Positions 7,338 to 48,186 of a stretch of 64,000 nucleotides of DNA are shown one piece after another. The stretch spans positions 1,459-65,458 of the forward strand of contig JAFGTP010000009.1 of NCBI GenBank assembly GCA_016934035.1, in the 5' to 3' direction. A program made the translations under genes and the position numbers. The notes under the pieces are model-generated. The model worked only from the letters and a program-made list of their open reading frames with translations, did not search any database and was not told where the DNA came from. Position 1 is the stretch's first letter; every line of letters starts with the position of its first letter. The DNA comes from Fidelibacterota bacterium. Lineage in GTDB: Bacteria > Fidelibacterota > UBA2242 > JAFGTP01.

Positions 7338-9164
7338 TCACTTTTTCAAAACTTCCAGAACTTGCAAGGGAAATTTAACATTTCCAAAAGGCATTGATAT
7401 TTGCACGCCCTGGACCTGGTCTTTGATATCCAGGATGGTCTGCTGAGCAATCTGAATGCCTGTTTCCTGGGCTTCTTCTTTTGATTTTGCTGCTTTCATT
7501 TTTTCCATGATATCAGCCGATACTGAAGCGCCGGGAACTTCATTGTTCATGAATTCCGCATTGCGCAGGCTGACCAGAGGCCAGACACCGGCTATGACTG
7601 GAATTTTATAGGGTCTGACATGGTCGAGAAACCGGCTTAAAATTTCAAGGTCAAAAACCGGCTGGGTGATAAAATATTCAGCGCCGGCCTTGATCTTCCT
7701 CTCAAATCGTTTCATCTCAAGACCAATGTCCAGGGCACCGGGATTGACACCGGCACCGATGAGATATTGAGTCGGCTCACCGATGGAATTTCCGCCGATA
7801 TCCCGGCCATTATTAAGATTATTGGCAATGGTAATGAGGCCGATGGAATCCACATCAAAGACTGCTGTCGCGTCGGGAAGGTCACCCATTTTTGGCGGAT
7901 CGCCGGTGATCAGCAGCAGGTTTCGTATGCCAATGGCATGAATACCGATAAAGTCAGAAATGATACCCAGTAGATTTCTGTCTCTGGCAGTATAGTGCAG
8001 GACCGGCTCAATGCCGGCCTTGTCGAGAATTTCTTTGGCGATAAAGGGCGCCCCCATTCTCGATGAAGCACGTGGCCCGTCGGGCAGATTGATACAGTGG
8101 ACCCCTGCGCTCCTGAGGGTCCTTGCAGTGGTCAGGGATTTTTCGGTATTGATGCCTCGCGGCGGCACCATTTCAACAGCACAGATAAATTCATTGGAAT
8201 AAAGTTTTGCTGCCAGCCCTGATTTGGTGGCCGGATCAATTTTGTTTTTTATTTCTTCTTTATCTTCAGGAATTTTTAAATCAATAATTTCTTTTTTGGG
8301 TTGAAAAGAAGAAATGGCATGTTTGATGGTTTTAATGTGCTCCGGCGTGGTGCCGCAACAACCGCCGATGACCCGGGCGCCTGATTGTATAAACCGTCTG
8401 GAATATTCCGCCAGATATTCGCTGGATGTGAGATAGAGTTTTCTGCCGTTGATTTGTTGCGGATATCCGGCATTGGGCAGAATGGAGATAGGTTTTTTTG
8501 TCAGATGATTGATTTTTTCCAGGGCTTCGTGCATTACTTTGGGGCCCACACTGCAATTCAATCCGATGATGTCGGCATCGCTCCGGTCGAGAGTCGAGAT
8601 AATCTCCTCAACACGAATACCGTAAATAGTAAAGAGGTTATCATTGATGGTCATCTGGGCAATGACCGGAATATTTTTTAGTTGCTTGGCAACAGTGACG
8701 GCCAGCAATAGTTCCTGAAGATCAAAAAAAGTCTCAAAAATAATGGCATCAGCTCCTGCTTCCATTATGGGCATCAACTGTTCACGGTAGGCTTTTTTAA
8801 ATTTTTCACGGTTTTCTTTTTGTAGTTTTTTCCCCAAAGGGCCGACACTGCCAATGACATAAACATTATCACCGGCAACTTCTTTGGCTATTTTGACGCC
8901 CTGGTAATTGATATCATAGATTTTTTCTTCAAGCCCGTAAGGCTGCAGTTTATAATGATTGGCCCCAAAGGTGTTGGTCTCAATGGCTTTGGCGCCGGCT
9001 TCGATAAAATCCCGATGGATTTCCCTGATCAGTTGGGGCCGGGAAAGATTGAGTTCATCATAGCACTGGTTGATAAACACGCCCCGGGCATAAATTTCAG
9101 TTCCCATACCGCCATCAAACAAGAGGATGTTGGATTGGATATATTCCAGTAAATTCTGCTTCAA
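7338..9164 (-). CDS. yitJ: Bifunctional homocysteine S-methyltransferase / methylenetetrahydrofolate reductase
   Basis: LFDGGMGT, ETNTFGAN, GLNCSVGP, GGCCGTTPEHI, then an MTHFR domain (NLLLITGDPPKMGD, ITQPVFD). Confidence 0.92.
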   Translation of the reverse strand: MKQNLLEYIQSNILLFDGGMGTEIYARGVFINQCYDELNLSRPQLIREIHRDFIEAGAKAIETNTFGANHYKLQPYGLEEKIYDINYQGVKIAKEVAGDNVYVIGSVGPLGKKLQKENREKFKKAYREQLMPIMEAGADAIIFETFFDLQELLLAVTVAKQLKNIPVIAQMTINDNLFTIYGIRVEEIISTLDRSDADIIGLNCSVGPKVMHEALEKINHLTKKPISILPNAGYPQQINGRKLYLTSSEYLAEYSRRFIQSGARVIGGCCGTTPEHIKTIKHAISSFQPKKEIIDLKIPEDKEEIKNKIDPATKSGLAAKLYSNEFICAVEMVPPRGINTEKSLTTARTLRSAGVHCINLPDGPRASSRMGAPFIAKEILDKAGIEPVLHYTARDRNLLGIISDFIGIHAIGIRNLLLITGDPPKMGDLPDATAVFDVDSIGLITIANNLNNGRDIGGNSIGEPTQYLIGAGVNPGALDIGLEMKRFERKIKAGAEYFITQPVFDLEILSRFLDHVRPYKIPVIAGVWPLVSLRNAEFMNNEVPGASVSADIMEKMKAAKSKEEAQETGIQIAQQTILDIKDQVQGVQISMPFGNVKFPLQVLEVLKK

Positions 9165-9358: not shown

Positions 9359-10303
9359 GTGTCGAGAAAAGAAAAAATATTGAATTGTTTCAATGCTCGG
9401 GATGAACTTTCCATCGACAATGCCAGGTACCAGGATTTTACCCGTCGCCTGTTTAATTTCCTACTGGAGGAGGATCTGGGAAAAGGAGATGTTTCCCAGT
9501 ATCCGCCAGCGGCCTTTGGAAAAAAAATAGAATGTGCCATTATTGTCAAGGAAGAGGGCGTTGTTGCCGGACTGGAGGAAATCATTTTTCTGTTGGGGCA
9601 ATACCGGGTAAAGGTACTGACAGATTTTTTGGATGGAGATATAATTAAAATCGGCGATGTCCTTTTAAAATTGCAGGGAGAAGCTGGAAAAATATTGGCT
9701 CTTGAACGGACAGTTTTGAATATTCTGCAGCGCTTCTGCGGCATTGCGACCATGACCGCCAGATATCAGTCCCGGATTGGCCGCCAGGATTGTTTTATCA
9801 TCGGTACCAGAAAAACATTGTTTGGGTTCTGGGACAAAAAGGCCGTTCAAAGCGGTGGCGGCCTCACACATCGATTAAATCTGGAGGATGCGGTGATGCT
9901 CAAAGAGAATCATCTCGACCTTTTGAAAAAAAATGGCGTCAGTATTTTTGAAACACTGGAAAATATAATCCGGAAAAATAAAGGGTTGCGGTTTATTGAA
10001 ATCGAAGTGACCTATGAACAGGAATTTTGGGAAATGGCCCGAAATCTGGAAAAGGTGAAGTTTGACGTTCCCAAAGTGCTTATGTTTGATCATTTCACTG
10101 TTCATCAAATTCGAAACCTGATTGAAGAAATGCAGAAAAGAGGCATTTATGATGATTTGCTGCTGGAAGCCTCCGGAGATATTACACTGGAAACGGTCAG
10201 CAGCTATGCTGAAGCAGGTATTGATGTGATTTCTTCGGGCGCCTTGACTCACTCGGTCAAAGGCCTGGACCTGACTTTACTTTTTAACTATCAGAATAAA
10301 TAA
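9359..10303 (+). CDS. nadC: Nicotinate-nucleotide pyrophosphorylase (carboxylating), divergent
   Basis: LEEDLGKGD, ERTVLNILQR, TRKT, GGGLTHR, LKENH, EASG, ISSGALTHS. Confidence 0.85.
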   Translation: MSRKEKILNCFNARDELSIDNARYQDFTRRLFNFLLEEDLGKGDVSQYPPAAFGKKIECAIIVKEEGVVAGLEEIIFLLGQYRVKVLTDFLDGDIIKIGDVLLKLQGEAGKILALERTVLNILQRFCGIATMTARYQSRIGRQDCFIIGTRKTLFGFWDKKAVQSGGGLTHRLNLEDAVMLKENHLDLLKKNGVSIFETLENIIRKNKGLRFIEIEVTYEQEFWEMARNLEKVKFDVPKVLMFDHFTVHQIRNLIEEMQKRGIYDDLLLEASGDITLETVSSYAEAGIDVISSGALTHSVKGLDLTLLFNYQNK

Positions 10304-10305
10304 AT

Positions 10306-12474
10306 ATGAAACCGATTTATTTGGACCATAATGCAAGTACACCGTTGGACCCGGAAGTCATTACCAGGATGAGACAGGTACTGGAAAATAATTTTGGGAA
10401 TCCTTCCAGCGCCCATGTGTACGGCTTAGAAAGTAAAAAACTGGTCGAAGAAGCACGGGACCAGGTGGCCCTGTTGATCAACTGCGAGCCGGAAGAAATA
10501 GTCTTTACCAGCGGCGGCAGTGAATCCAACAACATGGCGATTACTGGTATTGCTGACAGCTTTCCCGGCTGCCATCTGATAACAACTGCCATCGAGCATC
10601 CATCAGTGGAAAAGGTTTTTAACAGGCTTTCTGAAAAGAATTACCGGGTGACCATTGTACCGGTTGACCATCATGGAATCGTCAATATTACCGATATTGA
10701 AAAAAATATCCATGAGAATACCCGCCTCATTTCCGTGATGCTGGCCAATAATGAAACCGGAGTAATCCAGCCGGTTCAGAAGATAGTGGAGATTGCTCAT
10801 CGTCATAATATCTTAGTGCATACCGATGCTGCCCAGGCTGTCGGAAAGATAAAAGTCGATGTCCGGGAACTGAGTGTGGACCTGATGACCATCGCTGCTC
10901 ATAAGATGAATGGCCCCAAAGGGATTGGCGCCCTCTATATTCGTAAAGGAGTAAAAATCCCGCCCATGATTCTGGGAGCAGACCACGAAAGCGGATTGCG
11001 GGCCGGCACGGAAAATGTCCTGGAAATCGTTGGTTTAGGTGTCGCCGCTCAAATTTTTCATTATAATTCGGAAAACATCATCCTAAAACAAAAAGAACTC
11101 AGAGATGCTTTTGTCCAGTTGCTAAAATCGACAATTCCATCGATTCAGATCAACGGTGATGTCAAAAATAAACTTCCCAATACAGCGAATATTTATTTTC
11201 CCGGCTTGAATGCCAACACAATTCTGGCTAAAATACCGGAAATTGCCGCTTCGGCCGGGGCTGCCTGTCATGCCACCTCAATCCTGCCGTCCAGTGTGCT
11301 GAAAGCAATGGGGTGCTCTGATGAGCGGGCCCTGGGTTCCATTCGTTTTTCCCTGGGACGAAGGACCGACCATGAAGAAATCAAATTTGCAGTTGAGCGG
11401 TTAGCCGAAGTTTGTCAAGAACTTCGCCCCAAAACTAATGACATGGATAAGGGTAAAATATCATTGCGTGAAGCTGCTCTGGGCTGTTCCTGCAAACTGA
11501 GCCCTGAAGGACTGAACAATATTCTTCGAAAAATAGCCAAATCCAATCTTGAACCTACGATGACAATCGGGTTTGAAAATTCGGATGATGCTTCGGTTTA
11601 TTATCTCGATGATCAGCAGGCGATTTTAAATACTGTGGATTTTTTTTCTCCCATTGTAGAGGACCCTTTTGATTTCGGACGCATAGCCGCCGCCAATGCA
11701 CTCAGTGATATTTATGCAATGGGGGGCACGCCGCTTTTTGCCAATAATATCGTGCAGTATCCCGAAGCAAACCTGCCGGCTGATTTACTGGTTGAAATCC
11801 TCAATGGAGCCCAGTCGGTTGCAGAGGAAGCGCGCATACCCATATTGGGGGGGCATTCCGTCAAAGATGACAACATCAAATATGGCCTGTCGGTCACCGG
11901 AATTGTCAAGCGGGAACAGATATGGCAAAATTCCGGGGCCCGGGCTGGTGACAAACTGGTAATCACCAAACCCATTGGAACGGGAATTCTTTGTGAAGCC
12001 CTGAAAAACAATCTTTTAGAGGATAAAGAAAAGGCAAACCTGATTGATGTCATGGCCCGGCTCAATCAAGAAGCTGCTGAAATCATGAAAAAATACCCCA
12101 TTACTTCCTGTACTGATGTGACGGGATTCGGTTTGATGGGGCATTTGTCAGAAATGATGGAAGCCAGTGCATTGACAGCGATTGTCCGCTATGATCATGT
12201 ACCGGTGTTGGGTGAAGCGAAAAAAATAGCCAGACTAGGCATGATCGGTGAAGGCTATCGGGGGAACCTGGAATTTTTTGAAAAATATGTTGACTGGTCC
12301 GATAAAGTCGATAATATTTATAAAAAATTATTTTTTGATCCCCAGACCTCCGGCGGGTTATTGTTTACAATAGACGAAAAACACGACCAGGGCCTATGTC
12401 AAACCCATCCCGGCCTGTTCACAATTTTGGGAGAGATAACTGAAAGAAAAAATAAATTGATTGTTGTTGTATGA
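10306..12474 (+). CDS. selD: Cysteine desulfurase (NifS/IscS-like) fused to selenide,water dikinase SelD
   Basis: N-terminal about 375 aa: YLDHNASTP, GNPSS, FTSGGSESNN, AAHKMNGPKG, SAGAACH. C-terminal: LGCSCK, DDASVY, TVDFFSP, AAANALSDIYAMGG, TDVTGFGLMGH, DPQTSGGLL. One uninterrupted frame. Confidence 0.93.
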   Translation: MKPIYLDHNASTPLDPEVITRMRQVLENNFGNPSSAHVYGLESKKLVEEARDQVALLINCEPEEIVFTSGGSESNNMAITGIADSFPGCHLITTAIEHPSVEKVFNRLSEKNYRVTIVPVDHHGIVNITDIEKNIHENTRLISVMLANNETGVIQPVQKIVEIAHRHNILVHTDAAQAVGKIKVDVRELSVDLMTIAAHKMNGPKGIGALYIRKGVKIPPMILGADHESGLRAGTENVLEIVGLGVAAQIFHYNSENIILKQKELRDAFVQLLKSTIPSIQINGDVKNKLPNTANIYFPGLNANTILAKIPEIAASAGAACHATSILPSSVLKAMGCSDERALGSIRFSLGRRTDHEEIKFAVERLAEVCQELRPKTNDMDKGKISLREAALGCSCKLSPEGLNNILRKIAKSNLEPTMTIGFENSDDASVYYLDDQQAILNTVDFFSPIVEDPFDFGRIAAANALSDIYAMGGTPLFANNIVQYPEANLPADLLVEILNGAQSVAEEARIPILGGHSVKDDNIKYGLSVTGIVKREQIWQNSGARAGDKLVITKPIGTGILCEALKNNLLEDKEKANLIDVMARLNQEAAEIMKKYPITSCTDVTGFGLMGHLSEMMEASALTAIVRYDHVPVLGEAKKIARLGMIGEGYRGNLEFFEKYVDWSDKVDNIYKKLFFDPQTSGGLLFTIDEKHDQGLCQTHPGLFTILGEITERKNKLIVVV

Positions 12475-13382
12475 TCAAACTGTTGCGGGAATATAAAAAA
12501 ATCGCTAAAAAAATCACCAAAAGTGATATTCAGGCAGGTTGTGATGATGAAGAAATCACTCTTGAAAGCTTGTTGAATTTTGGACGTATTCAATCCAAAT
12601 CAAAACTCTTTTTGGGGATTTTCAGTAATGCCGGCTTGAAATATATGCTCAATCAGTTTCATCTGATTGAAGAACTGGAAAATTTAGGGCTGACCAATAT
12701 TACCTCAGAAATTGAAACCAGTGATTCCCACACCCACAAATTGTACATCTACAGTGGCGAACCCAATCCTTCCAATGTAATCTGCGAACTGGTTGCCAAA
12801 AAAGGGCCGCTCCATTTTGAAAAAGGCCTTTTGAAAAATTATCCCAAAGTCCAGATGAATTTTCTCCAGATAGAATGGCTCCTGCTTCAAAATCCCAAAA
12901 AGCGGTTTGCCGATGACCGGCCCCGGCTTCCCGGTCAATCCTATCCGGGATTGGGATTGGGGAAAAACCTTATGGTCCTGATTATGATTCTGGCCCAAAA
13001 TGCAGGGCTTGACGGAATTATTAATAAGCCCCATTTTTTTCATACGGCCTTCATGTTTACAAAAAAATTTGTTTTTGTAGACCCCTACAAGCAGGCTGAA
13101 ATTGAAATGCTGTCCAAGGATTTGCTGAAAAAATATTCTTTTTATCATCTTTCCTGGGCCTCCTTTTTTGAATGTATAGTCAATGAAAAAACAGGATCGG
13201 TTTTTCATTGGGAACCCGATTTTTTGATATTCCCCATGACAAAAAGACTATTGAAGTATTTTGATTCCAAAGAATACAAAAAACAGGTGATGATGTATAA
13301 AAATGATTTTAAGTATCGGCTGGATGAGGATAAATATAAACAGATGATCGAGGAGCACAACCTGGTGCGCAAACTTGAATGA
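12471..13382 (+). CDS. Hypothetical protein, possible GNAT-like fold
   Basis: 303-aa ORF overlapping both neighbours by ATGA. IEWLLLQNP...RPRLPGQSYPGLGLG resembles an acetyl-CoA-binding loop. Confidence 0.55.
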   Translation: MIKLLREYKKIAKKITKSDIQAGCDDEEITLESLLNFGRIQSKSKLFLGIFSNAGLKYMLNQFHLIEELENLGLTNITSEIETSDSHTHKLYIYSGEPNPSNVICELVAKKGPLHFEKGLLKNYPKVQMNFLQIEWLLLQNPKKRFADDRPRLPGQSYPGLGLGKNLMVLIMILAQNAGLDGIINKPHFFHTAFMFTKKFVFVDPYKQAEIEMLSKDLLKKYSFYHLSWASFFECIVNEKTGSVFHWEPDFLIFPMTKRLLKYFDSKEYKKQVMMYKNDFKYRLDEDKYKQMIEEHNLVRKLE

Positions 13383-43390: not shown

Positions 43391-44272
43391 ATGGATCATT
43401 TACAGCAACTGGAAAACAAAAGTGTACATATTTTCAGAGAAGCCTATGCAAATTTTAAAAATTTAGGAATGCTCTGGTCTATCGGAAAGGACAGCACAGT
43501 CTTGTTGTGGTTGGCCAGAAAAGCCTTTTTTGGTCATGTTCCCTTTCCTTTGATTCACATTGACACGAGTTATAAAATTCCTGAAATGATTGAATATCGG
43601 GACCGGCTGGCTTTGGAATGGAAACTGACCATGGTGGTTGGGCAAAATAAAGAAGCCCTGGCAGCCAAACAGACATTTCCGAATGGAAATGCTGATCGGA
43701 TTACCTGTTGCCGACTGCTGAAAACCCAGGCTCTCAAAGATACACTGGCCGGAACACGGGAACGCTATGTCATGAATCTGGAAACCGGGCAATATGAGGT
43801 GGATAAAAGTTCAGAAGCCTTTACCGGGGTAATTGTCGGTGCTCGTGCTGACGAAGAAGGATCCCGTTCCAAAGAGCGTTATTTTTCTGCCCGCAGCAAA
43901 GATAATGACTGGGATGTTGCGGACCAACCGCCGGAATTTTGGAACCAGTTCAAGACTGACTTCGCACCGGGAACACATGTCAGAATTCATCCTTTGCTGG
44001 ACTGGACAGAATTGAATATCTGGGAATATATCAAACGGGAAAATATTCCAACAGTTTCACTTTATTACAATCAGGGAAATGGCAAAAGATACCGTTCGCT
44101 GGGCTGCTGGCCCTGCACTTCGCCCATTGAATCCGCATCCCGAAATGTCGATGAAATTATTCAGGAGCTAAAGACTGGAAAATTGTCCAATATCGCTGAA
44201 CGATCTGGCCGGGAACAGGACAAAGAAGATGGTGGCGGTCTGGAATCTCTTCGTCGTGACGGATATATGTAG
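43391..44272 (+). CDS. cysD: Sulfate adenylyltransferase subunit 2
   Basis: [51 protein letters not shown]. Confidence 0.93.
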
Positions 44273-44332
44273 ACAAGATTAGGAAATTGAGGCTGAGATT
44301 AAGATAAAAAATTTATAGTAACGAGGTTAATT

Positions 44333-46147
44333 ATGATAGATGACAGACAGCAGATGAATATCGTGATTGCAGGACATGTGGACCACGGTAAAAGTACAAT
44401 CATCGGAAGATTGCTGGCTGATACAGACTCTCTTCCCGATGGAAAACTGGAAGCGGTAAGAGAAAATTGCAGACGAAATTCCAAACCCTTTGAATATGCA
44501 TTTTTGCTGGATGCACTGAAGGATGAACAGGCCCAGGGAATTACCATTGATTCAGCCCGTGTCTTTTTCAGCACACCCCTGAGAGATTATATTATTATTG
44601 ATGCACCGGGACATATCGAATTTCTCAAAAATATGGTCACCGGAGCCTCCCGAGCAGAAGCTGCGCTTCTGGTCATCGATGCCAATGAGGGGGTGCGTGA
44701 AAATTCACGCCGGCATGGTTATATGATATCTATGTTGGGTATTAAACAAATGGCGGTGTTGGTTAACAAAATGGACCTGGTCGGCTACAGTGAAGCAATT
44801 TACAGGGCTATCGTAAGTGAATATTCAGAGTTCCTGAAAGGAATCAATGTAAAGCCCCGATGTTTTCTGCCGGTTTCCGGGTTTCAGGGTGACAGCATCT
44901 CAAAACTGACTGCTCAGATGCCCTGGTACAAAGGCAAAACGGTATTGGAGGTCCTGGATGATTTTCAAAAAGAAAAGCCCCAAAAGGACAAAGCTTTTAG
45001 AATGCCGGTACAGGGAGTCTATAAATTCACCCGTTTTGGGGATGATCGTCGTATTGTAGCTGGCACTGTTGAAACCGGTGAGTTGAGAATCGGTGATGAA
45101 GTTGTATTTCTGCCATCGGGTAAAAGAAGCCGGGTAAAAACCATCGAATCATTTAATACCGGTCCCCAATCTTTCATCGCTGCCGGAGATGCCGCCGGGT
45201 TTACACTGGATGAACAAATCTATATAACACGGGGTGAAATTGCAGTAAAAGCCAGAGAAAAAGCACCAAAAGTATCGACTCGTCTGCGTGTTAATCTTTT
45301 CTGGATGGGCAAAGACCCTTTTGTCAAAAATAAAGATTATAAATTGAAAATCGGCACCATCAATGTACCGGTGAGAATTGAAGAAATCATTAAAATTATC
45401 GATGCTTCAGACTTAAACCTGAATGTCGAAAAAGACCGCGTCGAGAGACACGATGTGGCTGAATGTCTTCTGAAAGTCAAAACCAACATTGCCTTTGATA
45501 TCGCTGAAGAAATTGAAGGGCTCAGCCGTTTTGTGATTGTGGATAATTATGAAATTCGCGGTGGTGGTATCATTCGTGAAGAGCTGGATGATGAACAGTC
45601 CTGGATCCGTGACAAAGTCTACCTGCGAAACACCAAATGGATCCGCGGCGATATCATGCCCAAACAGCGGGCCGAAAGATATAACCAGAAAGCAAAACTG
45701 ATTCTTATAACCGGACAAAAAGACGCCGCCAGAAAAGAACTGGCTAAGGCCCTGGAAAAACGTCTTTTCGAAGAAGGCAAACTGGTCTATTATCTGGGCC
45801 TCGGCAGCTTACTCTACGGTGTGGATGCCGATATAAAATCCGAGGAAATCGGTACAGAAAATGGAAACCGTACCGAACACTTCCGCCGTCTTGCCGAGGT
45901 GGCTAACATCATGCTGGATTCGGGAATGATCATGATTTTATCAGCTGCGGATATGACTCAGGAAGACCTGGAAATTATCAAAGTGGTGGTCAACAGCAAC
46001 CAAATCGACACCATCTGGCTGGGCGATGATGTCACCACAGACCTGCAGTTTGATGAAAAATTATCAGACCTTCTGTCCATTCAGGAAAACCTGGAAAAAA
46101 TCAAATCCCGGCTGCAGGAAACCGGGGTCATTTTCAGCCCCTGGTAA
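44333..46147 (+). CDS. cysN: Sulfate adenylyltransferase subunit 1 with degenerate C-terminal APS-kinase-like domain
   Basis: [27 protein letters not shown]. The C-terminal domain has [12 protein letters not shown] in place of a P-loop. Confidence 0.9.
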
Positions 46148-46284
46148 GATAATTTAACTGGATTAGGATGGATGTTTTGTGTCTATCCTTATTTTTACCA
46201 TTATTCTAATAAGGGGTACCAGAAGAATACTTTACTAATTCGGTTTTATTTAATAGAATGAAGTATTGTATTTATGAGGTTAAT

Positions 46285-46839
46285 ATGAAAAAATTATTAT
46301 TATTACTGATTATTGGCCTGGTCACTTGTACCGAATATGAAACAGATTTGGATAAAATTAACAATTTCAATAAAAAAAATAATTATCTGAAAGCCAATAT
46401 GATCAGTCTGCATTTTATGATTGAGACTGACGATCCCGCTGATACAGATACCAGTTTTGCCAATCTGATAAAAAATTTGGATTTGCCCGTAACCGCTAAA
46501 GGATGTAAAGACGGTAAATATACTGGAACCTCTCCCCAGGATGCTTTTGATTTTTACCATCAGGTTGAACTGGAAATTAAAGATGAAAAAATCATTTCGG
46601 TTAAATATGACGAGTATAATGATGAAGGACTGAGCAAGCGGAAAAATAAAATCTATGGCAGACAGATGGCGAAAGAGGGTACTTCTCCGGAAGCGGCCTA
46701 TGATAAAATGCAGGAAATGCTGAAAGCAAAGCAATCCCTGCTGGAAGTGGATGGTGTGTCCGGCGCCACCTATTCACTTTATCGTTTTCGTTATGCAGTG
46801 GTCATTGCTCTGATCAAAGCAAAAATGGGGATCGTTTAA
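46285..46839 (+). CDS. FMN-binding domain lipoprotein
   Basis: Lipobox-like MKKLLLLLIIGLVTC; KDGKYTG, VELEIKDEKIISV, VDGVSGATYS (FMN-attachment S/TGAT motif). Confidence 0.8.
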   Translation: MKKLLLLLIIGLVTCTEYETDLDKINNFNKKNNYLKANMISLHFMIETDDPADTDTSFANLIKNLDLPVTAKGCKDGKYTGTSPQDAFDFYHQVELEIKDEKIISVKYDEYNDEGLSKRKNKIYGRQMAKEGTSPEAAYDKMQEMLKAKQSLLEVDGVSGATYSLYRFRYAVVIALIKAKMGIV

Positions 46840-48186
46840 TTGGACGAAAATTTATATCAGGAAATTCCCTCGATCGATAAATTATATCAAGATTTCTCTG
46901 GTACACGGTTGATGTCCGAAGTCCTGCTGTCAATCCTGCGGGAGGAAGTGGGCTTCATTCGCCAAAAAATTTTAAACCATGAAATTGCGACTTCGAAAGT
47001 TGGGAGACAACTTCATGAAAATATTCACAACCGAATCAATACAGAAAAATTCGGACACATAAAAAAAGTGGTCAATGGAACTGGAATTCTTCTGCATACC
47101 GGATTGGGACGGGCACCTTTTTCGATAGATTTTTTTGATGATCTCAAAGAAAAGGCCTCGGGCTATTTCAATCTGGAATTTGATCTGAATACCGGCAAGC
47201 GGGGGGAACGTCTGGACCTGGTCCGAAAGTCTCTCCGTCTCCTGTCGACCGCTGAAAATTCTGTTGTAGTCAACAATAATGCTGCTGCGCTCATTCTGAT
47301 TCTAAATACCCTGGCCAGTGGCAAAGAAGTTCTTGTTTCACGAGGGGAATTGATTGAAATTGGTGGGTCCTTCAGATTGCCCGATGTCATTGAAAAAAGT
47401 GGCGCTGTCATCAAAGAAATCGGCACAACCAACCGGACTCATTTGAAGGACTATGAAAAAGCCATTTCAGCTAACACCGGTGCGATTCTGGTGGTCCATA
47501 CCTCCAATTATAAAATTGAAGGATTCACAAAGACGCCGGAATCCGGAGATATCATCCAATTGGGCCATAAGCATCGAATTCCGGTAATTTTAGACCAGGG
47601 CAGTGGTGACTTTGACACCGGTGAAACTTATATTGTTCCATTCATCAAAAAAGGATTTGACCTGGTTTGTTTCAGTGGTGACAAATTGCTGGGAGGTCCC
47701 CAGTCCGGCATCATTTTGGGAAAAAATGAATGGATTGAAAAAGTCCACAGCAACCCCTTCTATCGTGCTTTTCGGTGTGACAAATTTACCTTGCTCGCAC
47801 TGGACTGGACCCTCAGAAAACTTATAAATGGTCAATCGAATGAGATTTATAAAAACCGGTTGCTGATCCGGTCTTTAAAAGAATTGGAATCATTAGCCAG
47901 CGAAATATTAAAAAATTTAAAACCCGAAATTATTGAATACTACGGCGTGGAAGTCACAAAAACATCAGTTGAGGCAGGAAGCGGCTCATTGCCTGGCAAA
48001 AAAATTGACAGCATGGCCCTGGTCTTTAAAAAAACAGATGCGGAAAAATTGAGAACATCTTTCAGAACTTGCAACGTTCCGGTTATCGGCTACATTTCCA
48101 ATGGTTGTTTTTACATTGATTTTAAAGCTATTGCCGAAAGTGAGGCGAAGGTTTTAAAAGAGCAGATGACCCAGGTACTGGTTTAA
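46840..48186 (+). CDS. selA: L-seryl-tRNA(Sec) selenium transferase
   Basis: NGTGILLHTGLGRAP, VNNNAAA, SRGELIEIGGSFR, EIGTTNRT, FSGDKLLGGPQSG. Confidence 0.95.
   Translation: MDENLYQEIPSIDKLYQDFSGTRLMSEVLLSILREEVGFIRQKILNHEIATSKVGRQLHENIHNRINTEKFGHIKKVVNGTGILLHTGLGRAPFSIDFFDDLKEKASGYFNLEFDLNTGKRGERLDLVRKSLRLLSTAENSVVVNNNAAALILILNTLASGKEVLVSRGELIEIGGSFRLPDVIEKSGAVIKEIGTTNRTHLKDYEKAISANTGAILVVHTSNYKIEGFTKTPESGDIIQLGHKHRIPVILDQGSGDFDTGETYIVPFIKKGFDLVCFSGDKLLGGPQSGIILGKNEWIEKVHSNPFYRAFRCDKFTLLALDWTLRKLINGQSNEIYKNRLLIRSLKELESLASEILKNLKPEIIEYYGVEVTKTSVEAGSGSLPGKKIDSMALVFKKTDAEKLRTSFRTCNVPVIGYISNGCFYIDFKAIAESEAKVLKEQMTQVLV

Follow-up and report, generated by a model that had tools for sequence, protein, structure and literature searches.

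Positions 10306-12474 (forward strand) of the window, a 64,000-nucleotide stretch from a Fidelibacterota bacterium, hold a real and intact gene fusion in which a NifS-like, pyridoxal 5′-phosphate (PLP)-dependent domain is followed by a complete selenophosphate synthetase, SelD. It is a single uninterrupted open reading frame (ORF) of 722 amino acids (aa), with the ATG at 10306 and the stop codon at 12472-12474. The product is probably a bifunctional selenium-activation enzyme, the only selenophosphate synthetase of its genome, in which selenium would be relayed from the PLP domain to SelD. The window corresponds to contig C27 in a genome (G000) of 4.2 Mb and 69 contigs, which is 88.6% complete. 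The gene is laid out as follows, with the structural scores taken from an AlphaFold2 (AF2) model as predicted local distance difference test (pLDDT) values.

10306..12474, forward strand: whole fusion ORF, 722 aa plus stop (ORF list, Pfam, NCBIfam)
10306..11430, forward strand: class-I (group I) NifS/IscS-like PLP domain, residues 1-375 (Aminotran_5, Foldseek, AF2 pLDDT mostly >90)
11431..11469, forward strand: inter-domain tether, residues 376-388, KTNDMDKGKISLR (low sequence conservation, pLDDT <50)
11470..12471, forward strand: complete SelD (selenide, water dikinase) domain, residues 389-722 (TIGR00476; aligned to 3U0O)

By Pfam, residues 4-360 match Aminotran_5 (270 bits), residues 427-534 AIRS and residues 546-716 AIRS_C. 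The NCBIfam selD model TIGR00476 covers residues 392-692 with 365.1 bits, where the cut-off is 125, and gives 367 bits when the whole genome is searched. The initial annotation of this stretch, which had proposed a cysteine desulfurase-like half fused to SelD, is borne out by these matches. The domain search that it had suggested (Aminotran_5 with AIRS and AIRS_C) finds all three in the window protein and in each of the 120 top-scoring clusters of the database (710-776 aa, 47-65% identity). The same arrangement, a NifS-like domain N-terminal to SelD in one uninterrupted ORF, defines the published NifS-SelD fusions, and as with these the genome carries selenocysteine (Sec) machinery. That an error of assembly or sequencing had fused two neighbouring genes might be suspected in a draft of this number of contigs and completeness, but the same continuous frame occurs in two genomes of the same genus (G001 and G002, uninterrupted at 729 aa), in 35 genomes of the same order (uninterrupted, 701-762 aa), in the 120 clusters, which are of independent source, and, in other phyla, in 11 or more species genomes. 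A 65%-identical protein, P0002, is encoded on five independent contigs (JGI, ENA, Logan) with the frame kept. Because the frame recurs across relatives and the junction DNA (11431-11469) is clean, with no slippery sequence and no homopolymer or repeat likely to give a frameshift, an artefact is effectively excluded.

The catalytic motifs of both halves, AAHK, SAGAACH and GCSCK, are all present, as had been stated initially, and their key residues do not vary among homologues.

10903..10905, forward strand: Lys200 codon, the PLP Schiff-base lysine in TIAAHK (AAHK is residues 197-200; invariant in 120/120)
11251..11271, forward strand: mobile catalytic loop SAGAACH, residues 316-322 (S, G, A, A, C and H invariant in 120/120)
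11482..11496, forward strand: GCSCK, residues 393-397, on the flexible N-terminal arm of SelD (G, C, C and K invariant)

Aligned with MAFFT, all 120 full-length homologues share His199, Lys200, Cys321, His322, Gly393, Cys394, Cys396 and Lys397 as invariant residues. An alignment of 27 sequences adds H98, N149, D174, Q177 and R347 in the PLP half, which we take to be PLP- or substrate-binding residues as in IscS-type enzymes, and D428, D445, N464, D468 and D604 in the SelD half, presumably ligands of ATP and metal. Cys321 is the predicted persulfide or selenopersulfide carrier of the SAGAACH loop. The SelD half matches E. coli SelD (3U0O) at 234 bits over chain residues 13-315; its five acidic or amide positions are also aligned there, and GCSCK pairs with GCGCK of the E. 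coli enzyme (Cys17, Lys20). In SelD relatives of the Sec type an in-frame TGA (G*ACK) lands exactly on the Cys394 column, so that Cys394 is the equivalent of their Sec and of Cys17. The codons of Cys394 and Cys396 are TGT/TGC (within 11485-11493) and not TGA, which confirms the earlier reading of a Cys rather than a Sec form; Lys397 is the catalytic lysine. A score above the cut-off, a Gly-rich arm with Cys and Lys, and the AIRS/AIRS_C fold all place this half in the SelD family.

The AF2 model has a mean pLDDT of 84.9. Its sole two low-confidence segments are the Cys321 loop (319-325; pLDDT <50) and the tether with the SelD arm (376-426), which are the segments that a relay would expect to move. 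In Foldseek the PLP domain reaches a target-normalised template modelling (TM) score of ~0.9 to NFS1, IscS and SCLY at 37-41% identity. A search of the PDB returned no solved structure spanning both halves and none of any lyase-SelD assembly. Between R347 and C394 there are 53-54 residues in 102 of the 120 homologues and 47 in the window protein; judged from the alignment, the tether is tightly constrained in length and poorly conserved in sequence. The subclade of the window protein (P0001, P0002, P0004 and P0005; window positions 11431-11496) has a tether 6-10 residues below the family norm. It has also lost the SelD N-terminal motif [IV][KR]LT[QH][FY]THG, in place of which it has ISLREAAL-type sequences, and carries Ser rather than Ala between the two cysteines of GCSCK. 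The shorter tether and the missing motif also distinguish it from the published fusions.

A genome-wide profile search finds no SelD other than the fusion. The remaining machinery for Sec synthesis is in place, beginning with selA in the window itself.

46840..48186, forward strand: selA, the consumer of the fusion's selenophosphate (TIGR00474, 482 bits against a cut-off of 268)

The selB gene is on contig C18 (328 bits) and tRNA-Sec on contig C65, while selU was not found in the genome. SelD here co-occurs with the selenium-utilisation trait, and the initial statement that selA at 46840 shows Sec to be made is strengthened by the other two components. As the sole SelD in a genome with selA, selB and tRNA-Sec, the fusion almost certainly supplies selenophosphate for Sec synthesis. 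The genome has two further NifS-like genes, which are standalone (395 and 384 aa) and fall outside the fused-domain clade; the fused copy is thus an additional paralogue with a specialised role, distinct from the housekeeping desulfurase.

In the proposed relay, the PLP domain would strip selenium from free L-selenocysteine, possibly acting on cysteine too, with the release of alanine. The selenium would be held on Cys321 as an enzyme-bound selenopersulfide. The Cys321 loop would then meet the SelD arm, which begins only ~20 residues past the last helix of the PLP domain, and selenium would be handed to Cys394 without the release of free selenide. With ATP, the SelD half would form selenophosphate, from which SelA would convert Ser-tRNA(Sec) into Sec-tRNA(Sec). 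Transfer may take place within one chain or between chains, both parent enzymes being homodimers. Retention of the fusion in about nine labelled phyla and throughout the order of the window suggests selection on the linkage. The two activities are known to cooperate in trans. NifS-like proteins are reported to deliver selenium to SelD (Lacourciere 2000, cited in PMC4561486), in agreement with the initial annotation, and E. coli IscS, CsdA and CsdB are reported to supply SelD as separate partners (Lacourciere et al. 2000). In Trypanosoma brucei, SCLY and SEPHS2 form a complex that depends on the N-terminal region of SEPHS2 and in which the PLP site becomes buried; Itoh et al. (PMC7595633) proposed a direct transfer from loop to loop. 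These lyase-SelD pairs share with the fusion both activities and the proposed hand-over from a mobile Cys loop to a flexible, Gly-rich N-terminal arm; in the window protein, by contrast, the partners are covalently joined, and the tether sits on the very arm that mediates the interaction. By analogy with these systems, channelling of selenium from Cys321 to Cys394 is plausible. The earlier suggestion that the fusion channels selenium from Sec to selenophosphate is reasonable in the light of the published lyase-SelD complexes, but it is inferred rather than demonstrated.

Bacteria presumably contain very little free selenocysteine, and Cys321 lies on a flexible, exposed loop. Both points would suit an N-terminal half that serves as a selenium carrier without a lyase role, Cys321 being loaded non-enzymatically from selenide or glutathione selenotrisulfide. 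Such a carrier is very unlikely, because a passive protein would not need the conserved PLP lysine, Lys200, together with H98, N149, D174, Q177 and R347, all of which are invariant.

Several findings weigh against the relay from PLP domain to SelD. A literature search found no biochemistry of the window protein or of any NifS-SelD fusion. The predicted TM-score (pTM) of the AF2 model is 0.61, so that it does not predict how the domains sit relative to each other. No selenoprotein gene was identified in the genome, as far as crude scans of an assembly of this completeness go, and the end use of selenophosphate is accordingly read from the machinery alone. The genome has no molybdopterin enzyme and no Rdx/SelW, and none of its 11 AhpC/Prx matches contains an in-frame TGA; two home-made scans for TGA read-through returned only shadow frames or adjacent genes (HPr, HypE/HypA). 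Finally, the fused domain has Pro98 (in EHP), invariant in the family, instead of Asp at the sole validated position of Sec specificity.

This position is one of three, Asp146, Val256 and His389, by which mammalian SCLY, an enzyme specific for Sec, can be told from non-specific ones (Collins et al. 2012, PMC3266270). Other group-I enzymes carry Lys at the first, Ser at the second and Thr or Ala at the third (PMC3266270). In the human enzyme (hSCL) only the D146K change conferred cysteine desulfurase activity, and swaps of V256 or H389 to the desulfurase residues, made singly, gave no detectable cysteine desulfurase activity (PMC3266270). At the three positions the fused domain has Pro98, Ala197 and His322, and the two standalone paralogues of the genome have Pro, Ser and Ser. 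His322 is invariant and Ala197 is found in 119 of 120 homologues, so that the fused domain resembles SCLY at its Cys-His and Ala/Val positions (H389 and V256). As a sign of Sec specificity this pair is weak, because the hSCL swaps at these sites had no detectable effect singly. At the decisive Asp146 position, where it differs from mammalian SCLY in lacking the specificity Asp, the fused domain is indistinguishable by its residue from ordinary NifS-type enzymes. The model of the bacterial lyase SclA (NF040779), a group-II enzyme, gives it 125.8 bits against a cut-off of 525.

With NifS, IscS, NFS1 and SCLY (1P3W, 5WKP, 3GZC, 3A9X) the domain shares the fold, the PLP lysine and the mobile-loop cysteine, and its Aminotran_5 fold, PLP lysine in HK and catalytic Cys on a long group-I loop identify it as class I. 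Its best hidden Markov model (HMM) matches in NCBIfam are NifS (423.6 bits, cut-off 530.75), IscS (372, cut-off 643) and DndA (360), all below the equivalog cut-offs. It also departs from NifS and IscS in its loop (SAGAACH against SSGSACTS), in having Pro at the position of hSCL Asp146 and IscS Lys, and in belonging to a separate clade with an ACH loop. It is not an orthologue of either; from its sequence, the PLP half is a NifS-like paralogue and not NifS or IscS proper. A dedication of the ACH-loop clade to selenium was considered and is not supported, selD being present in 21 of 28 genomes with a standalone ACH-type gene versus 29 of 39 with other types, in a sample biased towards anaerobes and metagenome-assembled genomes. 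None of the standalone ACH-type genes has selD within 6 kb. The initial annotation had called the N-terminal half a selenocysteine lyase, which is more than the sequence supports in view of Pro98, the low SclA score and the lack of selD enrichment. A preference of the fused domain for Sec over cysteine is unproven on such sequence criteria. Nor does the relay require specificity: both substrates are reportedly used by NifS-like enzymes that lack it, and such enzymes are reported to supply SelD.

The N-terminal half could instead be a plain cysteine desulfurase serving Fe-S clusters, thio-cofactors or tRNA thiolation. SelD would then take free selenide, as E. coli SelD can, and the linkage would be neutral or regulatory, with no channelling of selenium. 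The ranking of NifS, IscS and DndA as best matches fits this account, as do the Pro98 common to the ordinary desulfurases of the genome and the standalone ACH relatives, which are neither enriched in selD-positive genomes nor placed near selD. It is nevertheless unlikely. The two standalone NifS-like genes already provide the genome with such enzymes, and the fused domain stands apart in its distinct invariant loop (GAAC-H), its Ala197 and its separate clade. The fusion and the length of its tether are conserved across phyla. NifS-like enzymes already known accept selenocysteine in addition to cysteine (PMC3266270).

The fusion itself has precedents. It was reported only from Geobacter sp. FRC-32, as a Sec type, and was not detected among GOS sequences (Zhang et al. 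2008, PMC2398784), and later from two prokaryotes, one of them beyond FRC-32, and from Acanthamoeba castellanii and Naegleria gruberi; the fusions that protists have in common with bacteria were ascribed to one bacterial event spread by transfer (Mariotti et al. 2015, PMC4561486). With the exception of FRC-32, the published fusions have a Cys-type SelD as here. The fusion goes unmentioned in a review of the prokaryotic selenoproteome from 2026. In current databases it forms at least 120 clusters at 90% identity, a lower bound since the last matches listed still exceed 720 bits, and about a dozen clusters at 50% identity. Close homologues carry the names Marinimicrobia, Neomarinimicrobiota and Fidelibacterota, groups that the published accounts do not discuss. 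Full-length fusions occur in species genomes whose labels span about nine phyla: Caldisericaceae, Calditrichaceae, Zixiibacteriota, Phycisphaeraceae, Anaerolineaceae/Anaerolineales/Chloroflexota, Lentimicrobiaceae, Bacteroidales, KSB1 and Deltaproteobacteria. The 2.3-kb matches at betaproteobacterial loci turned out to be tandem desulfurase genes and not fusions.

Within the phylum, the 61 nearest genomes were surveyed (42 of the order of the window and 19 of other families). SelD is present in 37 of the 42, and 35 of these 37 are clearly fused; the other two are shorter frames that contig ends may have truncated, at least one of which (G031) starts at such an end. The fusion is thus the rule in this order, its normal, housekeeping form of SelD, and belongs to a published and widespread family. 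Of the initial verdict, rare rather than unprecedented, the second part stands on the reports of 2008 and 2015, and the first gives way to the cluster count and the 35 of 37. Public annotations of the protein are inconsistent, and range over 'SelD', 'cysteine desulfurase' and 'cysteine desulfurase NifS/selenium donor protein'.

A different N-terminal extension is known from the Ndh-SelD fusions (Zhang et al. 2008). These likewise join a Cys-type SelD to a domain presumed to feed it reduced selenium, but the partner domain is another and the SelD motif is CxxC. The lower-scoring SelD frames of ~750-1020 aa in genomes G089, G103 and G109 may be of this type; the G089 frame has no NifS homology.

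In a tree of 50 SelD domains, a single branch (96/93; 98% of bootstrap trees) splits fused from standalone proteins. Fused domains cluster together whichever of the sampled phyla they come from, and away from the Sec-type SelDs of the phylum to which the window belongs, in a sample that contains no standalone Cys-type SelD. This topology fits one origin of the fusion followed by horizontal spread, and agrees with the single-origin-and-transfer view of Mariotti et al. The tree of 105 NifS domains places the fused domains inside a clade marked by EHP[AS], xAGHKxYAP and the ACH loop (100/95). A few standalone genes of Desulfobacterota, Bacteroidota and Dehalococcoidia nest among them, so that at least two events of gain or loss are needed. 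Standalone class-I desulfurases with the same EHP[AS], xAGHKxYAP and ACH signatures are widespread (loci L029-L050, L052-L054, L062, L069 and L088). They include genes of the cultured Geobacter argillaceus and Providencia burhodogranariea and are, as a group, either sister or parental to the fused domain.

In other families of the phylum, SelD is standalone, ~350-385 aa long and interrupted by one in-frame TGA, in 15 of 19 genomes (G042-G060); G054 and G059 have both the fused and the standalone form. Across the phylum all 21 fused SelDs sampled carry Cys and all 17 standalone ones sampled carry Sec (loci L101 and L111-L126 among them). A candidate Sec-type fusion in G063, a 652-aa frame with one TGA, proved to be a chance open GC-rich frame without NifS homology. 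The partition between Cys and Sec would be explained if the covalent tether to a selenopersulfide donor replaced the Sec of SelD, and the fused Cys enzyme acted as a Sec-independent starter. This would solve the bootstrapping problem of a SelD whose own synthesis depends on selenophosphate. The idea is doubtful: the fused SelDs belong to one clade that spread horizontally, so that one past event may account for the correlation; Sec is present in the fusion published from Geobacter FRC-32; and standalone Cys-type SelDs, such as that of E. coli, work well alone.

The fusion lies in a packed run of genes consisting of nadC, the fusion, a conserved hypothetical gene (orf303), thiamine diphosphokinase and a sodium:solute symporter. 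Its two immediate neighbours are:

9359..10303, forward strand: nadC, upstream of the fusion (TIGR00078, 211.6 bits against a cut-off of 198.4)
12471..13382, forward strand: orf303, conserved hypothetical protein of 303 aa, whose ATG overlaps the fusion stop (ATGA)

Two bases separate the nadC stop from the fusion ATG, a synteny kept across the order, and the packed run as a whole is conserved across the order and not in other phyla. The product of orf303 has no Pfam or NCBIfam match. Its gene lies directly downstream of the fusion across the order, at 45-80% identity, and is better kept than thiamine diphosphokinase; the family comprises 57 clusters, with Marinimicrobia/Fidelibacterota names only. 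As a selenium partner orf303 was rejected, since relatives of 35-38% identity occur in a TetR/MMPL/TP_0789-like context without SelD and the gene is absent at the fusion loci of other phyla. Its adjacency is probably a matter of synteny and not specific to selenium. On the reverse strand at 7338-9164, a 608-aa ORF combines homocysteine S-methyltransferase (residues 14-283) with MTHFR (322-584), and is 81% identical in the relative that carries P0002. Just upstream of selA, at 43391-46839 on the forward strand, are cysD, a cysN/cysC-like gene and a small gene for a PplA-like lipoprotein binding flavin mononucleotide, which ends at 46839, one base before selA starts at 46840.

The value of the fusion as a discovery is small, and its worth lies in annotation. 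In the Marinimicrobia/Fidelibacterota of the order to which the window belongs, it is the sole route to selenophosphate. Being abundant and compact, the fusion family also offers a convenient natural system for testing the channelling of selenium from lyase to SelD, an idea of long standing for which the evidence has been indirect.

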